Source: a virus
Taxonomy: Duplodnaviria > Heunggongvirae > Uroviricota > Caudoviricetes
IMG/VR virus record: IMGVR_UViG_2778261354_000002
Location: 1 to 11,017 of that record
Direction: 5' to 3' (one strand)
DNA: 11,017 nucleotides
The position numbers were made by a program, and so were the translations under genes. Positions 2,576 to 7,541 of the stretch are shown one piece after another. The notes under the pieces were generated by a model that saw nothing but the letters and a program-made list of their open reading frames with translations, was not told the origin of the DNA and did no database searches. Numbering within the stretch: position 1 is the first letter of the stretch; each line of letters begins with the position of its first letter.

Positions 2576-3207
2576 TTCGCAGCTTTCCCCAGTCCGGCAA
2601 TCACGGTTTCCGTGATTTGCTGTTTGTCTTTAGCGTTCAGGCCCAGCAGTTCGCGCACGGGGTATTTCGTGGCGTTTCCGGGCGAGACAAGGCTCACCTC
2701 ACCGAACTGGTGCACTCTGGCAATGCGCGCGGCCCGCCCCTGAAAACCGACACTGACGCCGCTCGGGTCGGGGGTGATTTTCAGAAAGCGCGGTGTTCTC
2801 AGTTTTTCGAACATGGGTGAGCGACGTGATGCTCTTGCTGCGACGCGCTGCGTGTTAATTTCCAGATAGTCTTCGATATCTGCCTTGTAAAACGTCCGGA
2901 TACCCCCGGCGTCGGTATCGTAGCCGGTAATTTTCCGCCCGAACCGTCCCCGGGATGTGCTCCAGTTTTTCAGGTTTCTTACCTGTCCGTCCTTCCAGAT
3001 GAACTTCACGCCTTTTTGTATGCGCAGTATCCGGCGTTTTCGTTTCTCCCAGGGCTGACCGTCCGGGGATACCTGGCTTCTGATGCGTTTTGTCTGTACC
3101 TGCCGGATGGCCTTACCCACGCTCATTGCCGTGCGCTGAATTCCGGCAGCTGACAGGCCTGAAAGAATGTCCTGAAAGATGGCATCCAGTTCGTGAACGT
3201 CTCTCAT
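2572..3207 (-). CDS. S: Tail completion / virion morphogenesis protein gpS family, 211 aa
   Basis: ATGA overlap with the gpR stop (3204-3207). C-terminal block ARIARVHQFG...RELLGL matches the conserved gpS motif (ARVHQYG...RELLGL in P2 as recalled). Confidence 0.82.
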   Translation of the reverse strand: MRDVHELDAIFQDILSGLSAAGIQRTAMSVGKAIRQVQTKRIRSQVSPDGQPWEKRKRRILRIQKGVKFIWKDGQVRNLKNWSTSRGRFGRKITGYDTDAGGIRTFYKADIEDYLEINTQRVAARASRRSPMFEKLRTPRFLKITPDPSGVSVGFQGRAARIARVHQFGEVSLVSPGNATKYPVRELLGLNAKDKQQITETVIAGLGKAAK

Positions 3208-3674
3208 GCACCGGCCTCTTCTGCGGTTTTCCAGGTCATGTCTTCAAACACCACGCGCCACGCTTCCAGTGCCCGGCTTACCGGTGGCTCACCGATATGC
3301 TCCGCGCTCACCGTGCCGTCATCGTTGCGGCGTACAATCACGCGCTCCCATACCGGGATTTCCAGAAGAATGTCAGCGCTGTCATCATCGTTGATGGCCG
3401 TCGAAAATTTGATGCTTTTGTTTTTCTCCGGATTGAGAAGAAGATCCGGCTGATTCCTGTACAGCCACGCCATGACCGGCAGCATGATGTTGTCGATGCT
3501 TTCGGTGAAGTCCATGACGAACAACACCAGATTGTAGCGGTACAGGAATGAGGGGGATTCTCCGGTGGTTTCAATGCCGCCGGATTCAATGAATACCGTG
3601 AATTTTTCCGGACTGGCTTTACACCACCGGCAATGTGCTGTTAACGCATCGCGGAATGAATTCAGTTTCAGCAT
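3204..3674 (-). CDS. R: Tail completion protein gpR family, 156 aa
   Basis: ATG at 3674-3672. Sequence MLKLNSFRDALT...PVMAWLYRNQPD...EPPVS resembles recalled P2 gpR, and it sits immediately upstream of S. Confidence 0.82.
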   Translation of the reverse strand: MLKLNSFRDALTAHCRWCKASPEKFTVFIESGGIETTGESPSFLYRYNLVLFVMDFTESIDNIMLPVMAWLYRNQPDLLLNPEKNKSIKFSTAINDDDSADILLEIPVWERVIVRRNDDGTVSAEHIGEPPVSRALEAWRVVFEDMTWKTAEEAGA

Positions 3675-3752: not shown

Positions 3753-3920
3753 TCAGTTTAACGAGTTGCTTTCACCTGAACCTGATGCCGACTTTTTGGC
3801 GGCGGCCTCATCTGGTTTTTTGTTCCAGAAGTTTTTAACGGCTTTGTAGCCACCGGATAACAACCAGAGGACGCATACCGCAGTACTGAAATACAACATC
3901 ACCTGTTGAAATAAATTCAT
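3753..3920 (-). CDS. Unannotated small membrane protein, 55 aa (MNLFQQVMLYFSTAVCVLWLLSGGYKAVKNFWNKKPDEAAAKKSASGSGESNSLN); function unknown
   Basis: Hand-translated from the minus strand; below the ORF-track size cutoff. ATG at 3920-3918 is preceded by AAGGAG (3932-3927) with a 6-nt spacer; TGA at 3755-3753. One predicted N-terminal transmembrane helix followed by a Lys-rich hydrophilic tail. Lies in the AT-richer spacer between the esterase and gpR. Confidence 0.45.
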   Translation of the reverse strand: MNLFQQVMLYFSTAVCVLWLLSGGYKAVKNFWNKKPDEAAAKKSASGSGESNSLN

Positions 3921-4008
3921 ACATCGCTCCTTTGCATTGTGTGTATTGGTGAAAATTGCCAGAATGAAAATGACTTCATTAATGTCAAATTCATTAGCTT
4001 TCTTCTTT

Positions 4009-4037
4009 GCCCCTCCCGGATACGGAGGGGCTTTTTT
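4009..4037 (+). terminator. GC-rich hairpin (8-bp stem GCCCCTCC/GGAGGGGC) followed by T6; rho-independent terminator-like, oriented for the plus strand
   Basis: Stem 4009-4016 pairs with 4024-4031, loop 4017-4023, then CTTTTTTG at 4031-4038. It lies 15 nt past the esterase stop. On the minus strand the hairpin is followed by AAAGAAGAAAG rather than a U-run, so it is at most a weak or leaky terminator for the late operon. Confidence 0.4.
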
Positions 4038-4045
4038 GCTTACCG

Positions 4046-5974
4046 TCAGGCTGCCGGGCTGTTCACTTCCACTGTCAGCGTGTCAATCCACGTTTCATAC
4101 GTGTCTGTATTCGACGCATCCGTCAGAATAAGCGTGTTTTCCGCGCCATCGACTTTAAAGCGGGTCAGGGTTGTTTCCGGACCTTTTACCGTATCCACAT
4201 ACGGCGTGAATTTATTCTGTCCCCCGCCCGGATACACCAGTTCAAGCGTATGCCATTCATTGTTCAGCGTGCCAAAACCAGCGATTTTCTCTGATGTGTC
4301 GCCGTTTTTCATAAGGCTCAGCTTGTTGCTCTCGTCTGACTGAAGGAAGAGACCCACCAGGCACGGACTGGTACCTTCCGTTTTACCGACAAATTCAATT
4401 CCCTGAGCATCGCTCTCACTCAGTTTTAAATACATCGCAACGGCAATTTTCTTGTTAACTGCTTCGCCATTCACTTTAAACCGGCAGGTAATTTTGCCGC
4501 CGTTTTTCAGCAGTTCCGCCGCATTTGCCACTTCATGGGTCAGCTTCAGGTTCTGGGTATCGCCCTGGCTCAGTTTCAGCGCCCGTCCGGAAGTACTGGT
4601 ACTGTCCGTCACCACTTCTGCCTTACCTTCGCTCAGCGTCCAGCCCTGTGCGGCATAAGCACCTTCACTTTCTGCACCGCTGTACAGGGTGGTAACGTTA
4701 CTCTTCGGTTTTGCCGGTTCCGGGTAGTTTTCCGTTATATCGCCACCGGCAAGGAACGGTCCGTTACGCCCTGCATGGGTCAGGATTGCGGTGGCTATAC
4801 GGTCCGGCAGGATGCCGCGACGGGCCCATGAACTGAAGTGCATGGCGCGTGTCGGGTTCGTCCAGTTACCCGCCGTGCGTGATGCTGCGCCGTAATAATT
4901 TGCTTCCGGCACGTCCGGATCTTCTGCCGGGTTATTGGTCGGAACATTCGCACCGGTCTCATCCTTCATAAGTTCGACAAAATGCACATTCGGCTCACTG
5001 TTTTTACGGTACGCGCCATAAACCAGGCTGTATTGTGTCGGGTACTGTTGCTTCCACCAGAAGGTGGTGTCACCACATACCCACGGTACGCGAGCCGCAT
5101 CGCCGCCCAGACACTGACCGGCATACGCGGCCAGATCGGTACGGAACTGCTTCACCATGGCCGTAAACAACGCCGGATGCCCCGTGTAACCTGAAGACAT
5201 ACAGTCACCCTCGCCCTGCATCCAGTACACGGCCAGCAGGACGTTTTTCGGATTCTTTTCAAGGGCCGCCTTCGTGCGGGCAATTAAATCCATGTACAAC
5301 GGTTTACCCACACCCCAGCGGGAGGAATCCGCTGTTGCCCCCGTCTCCGGGTTATAGGTGCCCTCAGCACGATCGGTAAACGCAGAGCCGCCACGACTGC
5401 ACGGCACAATCAGGATCCCCGTATTAACCGGAATATAGGGCAGAAGACGTTTGGCAATATGCAGGCCGTGCCCGACACAACCATACTGACCACGGGAAAG
5501 GTCCGCGTTGGGGTGATTTTTGGCACTCATGTCTTCAACGTCATGGAGACAGTGATCGGCCTCAATCACATCGTTGTATTTACAGGCAGCACCACCCGGT
5601 CGGACCACACTGCGGCGGGCCAGCTGCTTAATGCGTGGATCGGGACGGTCGTAGCTGTCAGGCAGGGGCATACCTTCGCCGGTTGCCATATTGTTTGACT
5701 GACCTGCGGTGACCAGCACGTAGTAGTATTCCGGCTCCGTTGTTGATGCCGGAATGACGGTGGTCGTGCCTTCTTCATCAACAACAATTTCCGGCTCGTC
5801 TGTCACGGGCTGGTCTCCGGTCATGGCCTGCATGAGGTACCACGGTACACCCGGCTCTGACGCCACCTGTGCGTCACCCTGAAGCTGCCAGCCCAGCGCC
5901 AGACGTTCGTTAACCTTTTCCGCCAGTTCCTGACGGTTCATGGCGGTAATCAACTCAAAGTGTTTTTTGCTCAT
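4046..5974 (-). CDS. Prophage cargo: NanS-p-like sialate O-acetylesterase (DUF1737-like N-terminal domain + SASA/SGNH esterase core + C-terminal lectin-like domain), 642 aa from ATG at 5974
   Basis: AGGAG Shine-Dalgarno 7 nt upstream of the ATG at 5974-5972 (the track's longer 680-aa frame has no SD and overlaps the spanins). Motifs LVTAGQSNNMATGEG (SASA nucleophile block) and VYWMQGEGD (conserved WxQGE[SG]D block). No signal peptide. Length and domain order match phage-encoded NanS-p esterases of E. coli as recalled. Not part of the P2 backbone. Confidence 0.8.
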   Translation of the reverse strand: MSKKHFELITAMNRQELAEKVNERLALGWQLQGDAQVASEPGVPWYLMQAMTGDQPVTDEPEIVVDEEGTTTVIPASTTEPEYYYVLVTAGQSNNMATGEGMPLPDSYDRPDPRIKQLARRSVVRPGGAACKYNDVIEADHCLHDVEDMSAKNHPNADLSRGQYGCVGHGLHIAKRLLPYIPVNTGILIVPCSRGGSAFTDRAEGTYNPETGATADSSRWGVGKPLYMDLIARTKAALEKNPKNVLLAVYWMQGEGDCMSSGYTGHPALFTAMVKQFRTDLAAYAGQCLGGDAARVPWVCGDTTFWWKQQYPTQYSLVYGAYRKNSEPNVHFVELMKDETGANVPTNNPAEDPDVPEANYYGAASRTAGNWTNPTRAMHFSSWARRGILPDRIATAILTHAGRNGPFLAGGDITENYPEPAKPKSNVTTLYSGAESEGAYAAQGWTLSEGKAEVVTDSTSTSGRALKLSQGDTQNLKLTHEVANAAELLKNGGKITCRFKVNGEAVNKKIAVAMYLKLSESDAQGIEFVGKTEGTSPCLVGLFLQSDESNKLSLMKNGDTSEKIAGFGTLNNEWHTLELVYPGGGQNKFTPYVDTVKGPETTLTRFKVDGAENTLILTDASNTDTYETWIDTLTVEVNSPAA

Positions 5975-5978
5975 TGTG

Positions 5979-6290
5979 TTACTCCTGTGGTGGCAAATCC
6001 TCTGCCCGTTCAGCTCTCTGTCTGTCCAGCCACGCAATGGCTGCTTTGTCTGCGTTGCATGTATCCAGCGCAGCCAGTAACTGGTCACTCCATTCTGTTA
6101 TCCGGTACCAGGTCACCGGTCGCTCCAGAAAGGGGATCGGCGTCTGCCTTGTCAGTACTTCCGGCACCGGCTCGTAAACGAGTCTGGTTTTCAACGTGTG
6201 CGATGTGCTGTTGCAGGCGCTCAGTAACAGCGCCGGGAGGATAAGCGCCAGCACACTTATCGTTCTGTACAGCCTTTTGCATTGCTTCAC
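5979..6290 (-). CDS. o-spanin (Rz1/LysC-like outer-membrane lipoprotein), 103 aa, apparent GTG start
   Basis: Lipobox LLLSAC after a basic, hydrophobic N-terminus (MKQCKRLYRTISVLALILPALLLSAC). The reading frame starts inside the i-spanin gene in another frame and extends 106 nt beyond its stop (overlapped architecture). The only in-frame start is GTG at 6290. Confidence 0.7.
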   Translation of the reverse strand: MKQCKRLYRTISVLALILPALLLSACNSTSHTLKTRLVYEPVPEVLTRQTPIPFLERPVTWYRITEWSDQLLAALDTCNADKAAIAWLDRQRAERAEDLPPQE

Positions 6291-6528
6291 GCCGTTGCTC
6301 TCCTTCGGTGATGCGTTGCTGATCCAGGATCCGGATGATGCTTATCACCCGGGAAAAATCGCTGTAAGCCTCGCGGACTTCCTGCATGGCGGCCCGGTTG
6401 TCCTCGATGATGTCCATCATCTGCTCCCGTCCCAGGCTTTCCCGTCCCTTGCGGTATGCCTCCCAGCCGACCAGGCCGCATAACAACAGGGTGATAATCA
6501 GCCAGGTGATGATTACCGGTGCCCTCAT
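6085..6528 (-). CDS. i-spanin (Rz/LysB-like), 147 aa from ATG at 6528
   Basis: ATGA overlap with the endolysin stop (6525-6528) and AGGAGAAGG upstream. N-terminal transmembrane helix (VIITWLIITLLLCGLVGW) followed by a charged, coiled-coil-like periplasmic domain. The track's longer 155-aa form from 6552 lacks an SD. Confidence 0.78.
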   Translation of the reverse strand: MRAPVIITWLIITLLLCGLVGWEAYRKGRESLGREQMMDIIEDNRAAMQEVREAYSDFSRVISIIRILDQQRITEGEQRREAMQKAVQNDKCAGAYPPGAVTERLQQHIAHVENQTRLRAGAGSTDKADADPLSGATGDLVPDNRME

Positions 6529-7064
6529 GTTGCCTTCTCCTGCGTGCACCATTTCCGGAAGTCGTCCCGCCGGTTAAACAGCCCCTGTGAATAGCGTCCG
6601 CCGCTGTTCACAAAGTCCGTCAGCCGGTTGCACATTGCCTTCCAGTTCCGGCTTTGTGCGTGCTTCCATATGGTTGTTCTGTGCATCCGTCCGTCACGCC
6701 CCTTAAACCACATAAGGCCGTGACATCCCAGATTGAACGCCGCATCCGTCATGGCCTCAAAATGCCGCTGTGGCATGTCTCGGCCCCTGAAATTCTGATT
6801 GATGCAGTTTTCCGCCCGTCGCAAATCATTCACCCAGCGACCGGCAACCTCCTGTTGGGTGTGGTGGCGGTCGGGCACGTTTCCCGTTGAGCCGCAGCCC
6901 ACGGTTTTCACCCCGGCGATGTCCCTGTACGGAACGGCCCGGCAGTCTTCCCAGGTGGCGATTTTTTCCTGTGCCTCCTGTGACGTTCTCAGCGCCCCGG
7001 GGGCCAGCGAAAAACCGAGCGCGACAATGGCGGCAACGGCATAGCGTTTAATCTGTCCTGACAT
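6525..7064 (-). CDS. SAR endolysin (T4/P21-type lysozyme, GH24-like), 179 aa
   Basis: N-terminal signal-anchor-release-like segment (YAVAAIVALGFSLAPGAL) followed by the catalytic E-x8-D-x5-T spacing (WEDCRAVPYRDIAGVKT). Start overlaps the holin stop by 17 nt. Confidence 0.85.
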   Translation of the reverse strand: MSGQIKRYAVAAIVALGFSLAPGALRTSQEAQEKIATWEDCRAVPYRDIAGVKTVGCGSTGNVPDRHHTQQEVAGRWVNDLRRAENCINQNFRGRDMPQRHFEAMTDAAFNLGCHGLMWFKGRDGRMHRTTIWKHAQSRNWKAMCNRLTDFVNSGGRYSQGLFNRRDDFRKWCTQEKAT

Positions 7065-7338
7065 GTGATTCCCCGTCTGCTTTCAGGGCTTCCAGAGCGC
7101 GCTTCTCGCTGCCTTTTAGTGGGCGGTTGTGCATCTGGTCGGCTATGCGTGCAATAAGCTCGTTTCGGCGTATCTGGGCCTGCTCCATGCGCCTTCTGTG
7201 CACCCATCCCCGCAGCAGTGAGAGCGCCCCCAGAATCAGCCCGGCCAGCGCCATCTTCTCGCTCATGGTCATCACACCGATACCGGTGACCATGACTGAC
7301 GTGAAATACGTGATGTGGTCGCAAATTCTCTGAAACAT
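7048..7338 (-). CDS. Putative holin (pinholin-like, two hydrophobic segments and a highly charged C-terminus), 96 aa from ATG at 7338; the track's 7350 start is a GTG
   Basis: ATG at 7338-7336 lies 2 nt after the gpX stop. Hydrophobic segments YFTSVMVTGIGVMTM and MALAGLILGALSLLRGW, then an R/K/E-rich tail. Sits directly upstream of a SAR endolysin at the P2 gene-Y position. Further in-frame Met codons at residues 16, 23, 25 and 29. Confidence 0.6.
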   Translation of the reverse strand: MFQRICDHITYFTSVMVTGIGVMTMSEKMALAGLILGALSLLRGWVHRRRMEQAQIRRNELIARIADQMHNRPLKGSEKRALEALKADGESHVRTD

Positions 7339-7340
7339 AA

Positions 7341-7541
7341 TCAATCCCACAACTGGACGGTTTCCCGCTGCCTGTCCGGTATGATTTCCGGCAACTCCAC
7401 TTCCTGACCTGCCGCCAGAAACACGGTGTTGCTCAGCCCCGGATTGGCAGCCAGGACGCGCTCCGTCACGCCTTTTGTCATGCCGTAATGACGCTGGCAG
7501 AGTAAATCAACGGTGTCGTCATCCTGTGCTCTCACTTTCAT
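7341..7541 (-). CDS. X: P2-family tail protein gpX, 66 aa
   Basis: Start overlaps the gpL stop as TAATG (7543-7539). Sequence MKVRAQDDDTVDLLCQRHYGMTKGVTERVLAANPGL...VELPE matches recalled P2 gpX (...CVRYYGRTEGVVETVLAANPGL...VELPD). The track's longer form from 7610 is an antisense-overlap artefact. Confidence 0.85.
   Translation of the reverse strand: MKVRAQDDDTVDLLCQRHYGMTKGVTERVLAANPGLSNTVFLAAGQEVELPEIIPDRQRETVQLWD

Follow-up and report, generated by a model that had tools for sequence, protein, structure and literature searches.

The open reading frame (ORF) at positions 3753-3920 of the window, by which we mean the whole stretch of 11,017 nt of viral DNA analyzed here, is on sequence grounds a genuine gene for a small membrane protein. 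The gene is already known as a member of the catalogued DUF1378 family and is routine apart from its pairing with an esterase. Gene order in related phages indicates that it occupies the second place in a mobile cassette, which consists of a gene for a NanS-p-type esterase, DUF1378 and optionally DUF826. The best explanation overall, to which we assign about an even chance, is a late cassette gene whose product is an inner-membrane accessory of the esterase. Thanks to NanS-p esterases, lysogens of pathogenic E. coli can use O-acetylated mucin sialic acids for growth (PMC8065619), and DUF1378 is an obvious candidate for bringing the cytoplasmic, signal-less NanS-p to its substrate by a route other than lysis. 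The useful outcomes of the analysis are the cassette found in three phage backbones, the asymmetric linkage to the esterase and a conserved terminator that faces backward.

The original prediction had described an unannotated ORF on the minus strand, located between the esterase gene and gpR and preceded by an AAGGAG-N6-ATG initiation signal. The frame and its start signal were borne out by the sequence and the ORF listing, and the neighbors are indeed a NanS-p-like esterase gene and, by Pfam, the P2 gene R (Table 1). The ATG-started 55-aa product is MNLFQQVMLYFSTAVCVLWLLSGGYKAVKNFWNKKPDEAAAKKSASGSGESNSLN, and the window contains two copies of the pattern AAGGAG-N5-8-ATG where 0.29 would be expected. 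The ORF scored 64.1 bits (E = 1.3e-17) with Pfam PF07125 (DUF1378), for which the cut-off is 25, and its residues 1-50 aligned to positions 1-51 of the 59 in the model; it thus lies above the curated gathering threshold over nearly the whole model. It also matched phrog_494 of the PHROGs (E = 1.2e-20), and its exact RefSeq counterpart is named "DUF1378 family protein [Escherichia coli]". The 55-aa gene is already called in the assembly GCA_002461255.1, of which the window is the entire contig NJZR01000056.1, and in related E. coli prophages the corresponding slot holds a gene that PGAP annotates as "DUF1378 family protein", so that the term unannotated was true only of the 60-aa ORF track. The records of 933W and VT2-Sakai omit the DUF1378 CDS and carry an overlapping ORF in another frame instead. 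Because of such omissions from reference phage records, the gene is easily overlooked in studies of Stx phages. Searches with the ORF against NCBIfam, PADLOC and PDB profiles returned no match, nor did megablast against the phage collection, whether with the 451-nt region or with the entire window as the query; relatives of the window surfaced only at the protein level or in E. coli genomes.

Length alone does not set the ORF apart. Between 3000 and 4800, a stretch of 1.8 kb, as many as 26 ORFs reach 30 aa or more, so that 55 codons are not beyond chance, and we hold the ORF to be real because of its family match, frame conservation and purifying selection. Frameshifts or stops tolerated in related prophages had been named as evidence that would speak against the gene, and they were absent almost everywhere: the frame is intact and starts with ATG in 102 of 102 related loci, which encode 29 distinct proteins of 44-67 aa, and a single relative found after these loci (L121) carries a DUF1378 pseudogene, which runs into two stops after 20 codons and has lost the SGGY residues. 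Across an ungapped core of 44 codons, pS was 0.7-0.96, with synonymous sites saturated, and pN was 0.17-0.38. The dN/dS ratio was about 0.06-0.3 where dS was computable, and the diverged lineages have a purine-rich SD-like run at a similar distance from the ATG. ORFs this long are common by chance, but the reading of a chance ORF without a gene is already refuted by the comparative data, namely the conserved frame, the SD in all lineages and a dN/dS far less than 1 while synonymous sites are saturated, in addition to the Pfam and PHROG matches; we leave it next to no probability. As to the extent of the family, a homologue search with the single sequence yielded one protein, and a profile search was used instead, which gave 361 DUF1378 clusters at 90% identity; those with a named source are nearly all from E. 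coli or Shigella. It is a small family; at 50% identity, a set of 1.8 billion proteins includes eight genuine representatives of it. Two top matches of this representative search, P0002 and P0006, were discarded as repeat or low-complexity artifacts.

The DUF1378 product is predicted from hydropathy and modeling to be a single-pass inner-membrane protein in the N-out/C-in orientation. The best 19-residue window of hydropathy covers residues 3-21, and the first 15 residues on the C-terminal flank of the helix contain four Lys or Arg and no acidic residue, in agreement with the single hydrophobic helix and basic tail described originally. The N-terminal flank has no charge, and by the positive-inside rule this asymmetry predicts the N-out/C-in topology. 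The ORF falls in the size range of the family (about 55-65 aa) and contains the family motif LYF[CS]T.V[CS].L.L.SGGY within the helix, followed by a basic helix. In the alignment of DUF1378 proteins, residues L9, Y10, F11, V15, L20, G23, G24, Y25 and D37 are invariant. The window protein has Ser12 and Trp19 at two positions where almost all members of the family have Cys and Tyr. AlphaFold2, supplied with an alignment of 32 sequences, predicted a single helix from residue 3 to 47 followed by a disordered tail, with moderate confidence (overall mean pLDDT of 66; block means of 77-85 over residues 1-20), and a profile search of the PDB found no relative. Several phage lysis proteins are small single-pass membrane proteins, including class III holins, phiX174 E and the Mu gp25 releasin, all of which combine a single transmembrane helix with a charged soluble tail; phiX174 E shares the N-out/C-in orientation. 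No sequence or profile similarity of DUF1378 to these proteins was detected, and unlike them it is associated with an esterase, not with an endolysin.

All genes of the window are on the minus strand in the order of P2. Scaffold O, capsid N, terminase M, head completion L and tail X are followed by the lysis genes, and then by the esterase gene, DUF1378, R, S, V, W, J and I. The lysC ORF is embedded in and overlaps the Rz-like gene. The esterase, named "DUF6645 domain-containing protein" in RefSeq, is composed of DUF1737, SASA/SGNH and DUF6645 lectin-like domains and matched two PDB entries, E. coli NanS (3pt5, E = 3e-111) and the C-terminal lectin-like domain of NanS-p (6yp6, E = 2e-32). Its N-terminus, MSKKHFELITAMNRQELAEK..., has no hydrophobic signal sequence. 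In P2 itself, lysC and R are neighbors; none of the relatives retrieved has lysC directly adjoining R, and in many related P2-like prophages the esterase gene stands alone in the lysC-R slot.

Table 1. Positions of the genes and sequence elements discussed in the text
Feature	Position	Strand	Evidence
P2 tail completion gene R	3204..3674	-	Pfam P2_Phage_GpR, E = 4e-40
DUF1378-family CDS, 55 aa, WP_096843266.1	3753..3920 (stop codon included)	-	ORF listing, Pfam, PHROG, RefSeq, conservation
Predicted transmembrane helix, codons 3-25, LFQQVMLYFSTAVCVLWLLSGGY	3846..3914	-	Hydropathy, family motif, AlphaFold2
Shine-Dalgarno sequence AAGGAG, 6 nt 5′ of the DUF1378 ATG	3927..3932	-	Sequence
GC-rich hairpin (4009-4031) and T-run (4032-4037)	4009..4037	+	Terminator scan match, folding
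NanS-p-type sialate O-acetylesterase, 642 aa, WP_096843267.1	4046..5974	-	Pfam, PDB, source assembly
lysC, Rz1-like lipoprotein ORF, lipobox LLLSAC	5979..6290	-	Pfam LysC, E = 4e-12; translation
Rz-like spanin	6085-6552	-	phrog_214
Lysozyme, hydrophobic N-terminus	6525-7064	-	
Holin	7048-7350	-	phrog_1350 match

The esterase ATG lies 4 nt past the lysC stop codon, which leaves no room for a promoter there; the esterase stop codon and DUF1378 are separated by 125 nt, and the DUF1378 stop codon and R by 78 nt. No sigma-70-type promoter passed the scan between 3400 and 6400 on either strand. The TTGACA hexamer noted earlier upstream on the minus strand is present, at 3983-3988 and not at 3984-3989. 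The hexamer is not enriched in the window (four found against 6.6 expected) and is missing in the closest relative (L010), whose DUF1378 protein is 98% identical; with no promoter in the scan, it was rejected as a promoter element. A moron would have a promoter and a terminator of its own, and the hairpins that flank DUF1378 have no U-tract on the coding strand. The suggestion of an independent moron with its own promoter is thus not supported, given the empty scan, the unconserved hexamer and the closeness of the esterase gene to lysC. With neither a promoter nor a sense-strand terminator, co-transcription in a P2-type late operon is the simplest reading. NanS-p in Stx phages is a late, induction-dependent gene (PMC8065619), and DUF1378 is probably made late, together with the esterase.

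What stands of the original interpretation is a small single-pass membrane-protein gene with a strong ribosome-binding site, and the idea of a partner of the esterase fits the synteny in lambdoid, P2-like and Mu-like backbones alike. A same-strand esterase gene was found directly upstream of DUF1378 in 119 of 120 informative loci, that is, loci with enough upstream sequence, where linkage means that the esterase gene ends within 400 nt. The linked loci, which are not independent samples, are distributed over lambdoid (74), P2-like (20), Mu-like (9) and undetermined (16) backbones, and DUF1378 starts 60-170 nt downstream of the NanS-p-type esterase in them. The 125-nt gap places the window gene in the usual position of the family, directly 3′ of a SASA/DUF6645 esterase in a temperate phage. 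Members of the family come almost exclusively from E. coli and Shigella, a range so narrow that shared descent alone could explain the synteny.

Three arrangements of the cassette were found. A tblastn search located DUF1378 in 306 records of phages, nearly all of them Stx or other lambdoid phages of E. coli, where the order is nanS-p, DUF1378, DUF826, holin S and lysozyme R. A published description likewise places DUF1378 and DUF826 between nanS-p and S and gives no function (PMC10462455). Literature searches, by locus tag as well as by family name, brought up no functional study of DUF1378; the "DUF1378" in PMC7213743 is a typo for DUF1738. In P2-like prophages, the esterase and DUF1378 genes lie between lysC and R without DUF826, and these prophages form three diverged lineages, the window's own, a second with a DUF1378 protein 71% identical to that of the window and a third with one 47% identical. 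In Mu-like prophages, the esterase gene, DUF1378 and DUF826 lie between the tail-fiber/gin and com-mom genes, and no lysis-gene family was called within about 5 kb of DUF1378.

We compared the window with each of these arrangements. The DUF1378 proteins of Stx and other lambdoid phages, such as ORF B78 (NP_859229.1) of an Stx1-converting phage, are homologous over the whole core and 56-63% identical over residues 1-45. They share the length class, the motif and the A-run-plus-hairpin spacer with the window, and their genes lie 117-169 nt past a nanS-p-type esterase gene, the position seen in the window. In contrast, the window has a P2-like backbone, the tail gene R downstream in place of DUF826 and holin S, an SD (AAGGAG) much stronger than the lambdoid GGAAAG or GGTAAG, Ser in place of the lambdoid Cys12, and an unrelated C-terminal tail. 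The other P2-like DUF1378 genes, represented by WP_001537165.1 of strain SW070917 and by the P0004 lineage, occupy the same slot in the order lysC, esterase, DUF1378 and R. The P0004 protein is the more distant of the two (47% identity, against 71% for SW070917), and the esterases are about 51% identical. The backbone genes of the window and the SW070917 lineage are about 90% identical, whereas the cassette has diverged, which points to cassette replacement by recombination. The Mu-like cassette has the pair, the orientation and the spacer hairpin in common with the window but differs in an esterase without DUF1737, in the presence of DUF826 and in its distance from lysis genes.

The linkage does not hold equally in both directions. 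Among 34 esterase-seeded loci, DUF1378 was missing from 17, of which 14 are P2-like, with the esterase stop codon about 25-30 nt from the start of R, and three have holin S next. DUF1378 was found without an esterase in a Mu-like prophage of Cedecea neteri, where it follows tail-fiber genes and precedes a DNA methylase gene. Esterase-positive phage records numbered 347 against the 306 positive for DUF1378, a gap that is at least partly due to tblastn sensitivity, since an under-counted record of the Stx1a group had an intact DUF1378 when checked. DUF1378 identity does not track the hypervariable C-terminal domain of the esterase: the two are 100% and 41% identical between loci L015 and L026, and 98% and 65% identical between the window and L010. 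Nor does the presence of DUF1378 track DUF1737, which is missing from the Mu-like esterase and present in that of the esterase-only locus L109. The products of the window and L010 are 74% (esterase), 98% (DUF1378) and 100% (gpR) identical, which places recombination breakpoints inside the esterase gene, with DUF1378 and its flanks almost identical. The esterase and spacer of the window are closest to those of a lambdoid locus (L104; esterase 82% identical, hairpin and spacer homologous), which shows that the cassette is exchanged between backbones.

In the explanation that we prefer, the cassette would have entered a P2-like prophage within its late operon, where lysC and the tail gene R now flank it, and DUF1378 would be translated from the late transcript of the esterase through its own strong ribosome-binding site. 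An N-terminus of 2-6 residues would remain outside, one helix would cross the inner membrane, and a basic amphipathic helix with a short disordered tail would lie in the cytoplasm. At the membrane, DUF1378 might hold or handle the signal-less esterase or aid its release, for example; it would be helpful, not essential, to the esterase, and would be no stand-alone toxin, exclusion factor or core lysis protein. The accessory role itself is favored at roughly one chance in three, because the esterase is the only constant neighbor in three unrelated backbones, because the Mu-like context parts DUF1378 from lysis genes, and because DUF1378 almost never occurs without an esterase while the esterase is often alone, which is the pattern of a dispensable helper. 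It fits better than a role as a toxin, in exclusion or at the core of lysis. Against it, the linkage breaks both ways, in the 17 of 34 esterase-seeded loci that have no DUF1378, in the Cedecea locus with DUF1378 only and in the L121 pseudogene, and DUF1378 does not co-vary with the esterase C-terminal domain or DUF1737.

These same breaks, with each gene occurring without the other, would be expected if DUF1378 were a passenger with a membrane function unrelated to the esterase, for instance in lysogen benefit, envelope stress or superinfection exclusion, in a block that is inherited and exchanged as a unit. A narrow and young family, the lack of co-variation with the esterase domains and the breakpoints inside the esterase gene, with DUF1378 and gpR better preserved than the esterase between the window and L010, also agree with this reading. 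However, the pair has been kept in three backbones, P2-like phages dropped DUF826 and kept DUF1378, and Cedecea provides the only case among the sampled loci of DUF1378 without an esterase. In addition, no promoter was found for expression in the lysogen, and neither the ORF nor the esterase matched a defence model of PADLOC. We consider an unrelated function possible but doubtful. A part in lysis, as a holin-, antiholin- or releasin-like protein that tunes the timing of lysis by a pinholin and SAR endolysin, appears unlikely. It would suit the single transmembrane helix with a charged cytoplasmic tail, features that holins have but that are not specific to them. The position of the gene would suit it as well, since DUF1378 is upstream of holin S on the same late transcript in lambdoid phages and follows the lysis cassette at a distance of about 2 kb in P2-like phages, and the endolysins of both contexts start with a hydrophobic SAR-like segment. 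Nevertheless, linkage to an endolysin or lysis cassette is not consistent: the Mu-like and Cedecea copies are at the tail-fiber/mom end, and the lack of any called lysis-gene family within about 5 kb of these copies weakens the case for a holin accessory. In the sampled loci, DUF1378 was never beside a holin without an esterase, related P2-like prophages manage without DUF1378, and the ORF matched no holin model in Pfam or the PHROGs, whereas the holin of the window at 7048-7350 did.

The spacer between the esterase gene and DUF1378 bears on a further alternative. Read on the coding (minus) strand, an A-run and then a hairpin without a U-tract follow directly past the esterase stop codon, as in a terminator that points in the opposite direction to the genes. 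On the plus strand, the element reads as a textbook intrinsic terminator. The hairpin folds with -19 kcal/mol (z = -2.9) on the minus strand and with -17.8 kcal/mol (z = -2.85) on the plus strand. The same A-run and hairpin architecture, built from at least six different stem sequences, is found in lambdoid, Mu-like and P2-like cassettes and is absent from esterase-only prophages. Judging by its shape, the hairpin would block antisense transcripts from entering the esterase gene. No antisense promoter passed the scan in the window or in 933W, and no Rfam family was found in the esterase-DUF1378 spacer of the window or related loci.

DUF1378 could be imagined as the membrane toxin of a type I toxin-antitoxin-like system, with an antisense RNA, terminated at the T-run 4032-4037 on the plus strand, controlling its translation. 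The peptide is small and hydrophobic, the antisense-facing, terminator-shaped hairpin is conserved 88-100 nt upstream of the ATG, and the lambdoid loci have a conserved antisense sequence, TTGAC[AT]-N17/18-TA[AG]AAA, as read by eye. But in addition to the missing antisense promoter and Rfam match, the candidate antisense -10 element has no conserved final T and no equivalent in the window, and such an RNA would overlap neither the SD nor the coding sequence. A strong, exposed SD inside a late operon is unlike known type I toxins, purifying selection maintains DUF1378 as a protein across hundreds of prophages, and the ORF matched no toxin model in Pfam, PHROGs, NCBIfam or PADLOC. We regard such a toxin as very improbable. 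Somewhat less remote, but still a long shot, is an extension of the preferred esterase-accessory role, in which DUF1378 would be the dedicated membrane part of a self-contained mobile "sialic-acid foraging" module; it would tether the signal-less NanS-p esterase to the inner membrane or gate its release in a holin-like (type 10 secretion-like) manner, and the backward terminator would insulate or regulate the pair via an antisense transcript.

A second stem-loop, at about 3957-4000, contains the TTGACA hexamer and is specific to the window, not conserved. The sole Rfam match in the window, to a Flavivirus xrRNA at 4820-4893, was below threshold and was taken as chance. Among the related loci, Rfam detected STnc100 and AsxR upstream of nanS-p in 933W.

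The spacer between the NanS-p-type esterase and DUF1378 carries an A-run and a GC-rich hairpin, with the T-run on the strand that carries none of the genes. By appearance, this element looks like an intrinsic terminator facing backward. Its position is conserved among the lambdoid, Mu-like and P2-like cassettes, in which the stem occurs in at least six different sequences, and the loci that lack DUF1378 also lack the hairpin. A promoter scan of the window and 933W found no antisense promoter for it, and no Rfam family matched the spacer hairpin in the window or the related loci. Folding of the entire 125 nt spacer gave z=-4.7. The TTGACA hexamer upstream of DUF1378, to which the original prediction had pointed, sits inside a second, AT-rich stem-loop; the closest relatives (L010, L104 and L121) do not conserve this stem.

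Coordinates of the features in the window and in related loci (L001, phage 933W; L121, close P2-like relative)
Feature	Location	Strand	Remarks
A-run and GC hairpin	window 4009-4037	+	immediately 3′ of esterase stop
Counterpart hairpin	L001 3875-3887		also in L094, L010, L104, L121
Second stem-loop, AT-rich	window about 3957-4000	-	in esterase-DUF1378 spacer
LysC/Rz1-like lipoprotein ORF	window 5979-6290	-	Pfam LysC E=4e-12; lipobox LLLSAC
DUF1378 pseudogene	L121 5057-5150		
ST933Wp43, 148 aa	L001 4001-4493 (933W record 25261-25753)		overlaps DUF1378 gene

A large P2-like prophage group (L109-L113, L115, L117-L120, L125, L126, L134 and L135) likewise has its lysB/R slot occupied by a NanS-p-type esterase, with both DUF1378 and the hairpin absent. 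Only about 25-30 nt separate the esterase from gpR in this group, and gpR is about 55% identical to that of the window. DUF1378 has decayed in L121, where the frame runs into two stop codons past codon 20 and has lost the SGGY motif by deletion; the pseudogene locus keeps the Shine-Dalgarno sequence and the upstream hairpin. Three further loci (L108, L114 and L116) are ordered as a P2-like LysB-type gene, the esterase, lambdoid holin S and lysozyme R, and contain neither DUF1378 nor DUF826. Their holin S and lysozyme R are 99% and 93-94% identical, respectively, to those of 933W, and these loci are either real inter-family recombinants via the shared esterase or chimeric assemblies.

Mu-like prophages (L139-L144 and L094-L096) represent the third backbone of the cassette, which is arranged as esterase, DUF1378 and DUF826 at the prophage end, between tail-fibre/gin on one side and com-mom on the other. 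Their esterases of 684-691 aa are devoid of the DUF1737 domain, and no lysis-gene family was called within about 5 kb in these prophages.

The mechanical ORF list assigned the window esterase to 4046-6088 (-), a 680 aa protein with a GTG start overlapping the spanin genes. The actual start is the ATG at 5974, which aligns with Met1 of NanS-p and is 4 nt past the lysC stop codon; the gene is 4046-5974 (-), encoding 642 aa (WP_096843267.1). The LysC/Rz1-like ORF is itself embedded in a different frame in the Rz-like gene (6085-6552) and extends past its end. Sequence comparison shows the esterase to be a mosaic. Across the window, L010/L124, L015 and L026, identity in the C-terminal lectin-like domain varies widely (29-68%), even where the phages compared are 98-100% identical in DUF1378 and the flanking genes, which implies frequent recombination within the esterase gene. 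An Rfam match to the tick-borne flavivirus xrRNA family inside this gene (4820-4893, -; 25.4 bits, E=0.044) fell below the gathering score of 46.5 and was put down to chance.

DUF1378 has no CDS in the RefSeq entries for 933W and VT2-Sakai (L138), where an ORF that overlaps it in a different frame is annotated in its place. The 933W version of that ORF, ST933Wp43, consists of the DUF826 gene (ATG at L001 4221) preceded by an out-of-frame N-terminal extension, which is probably a start-site misannotation. The sRNAs STnc100 (+) and AsxR (-) are located just 5′ of nanS-p in 933W (L001 1517-1776); the window, in which lysC and the esterase adjoin, has neither. Just 5′ of holin S, lambdoid copies have a terminator-like hairpin with a T-run on the sense strand (L001 about 4500-4545; L108 about 4990-5030), which was read by eye and not listed by the terminator scan of L001 3700-4700. 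In the absence of Q antitermination, this putative terminator would set the lysis genes apart from the stx/nanS-p/DUF1378/DUF826 block.
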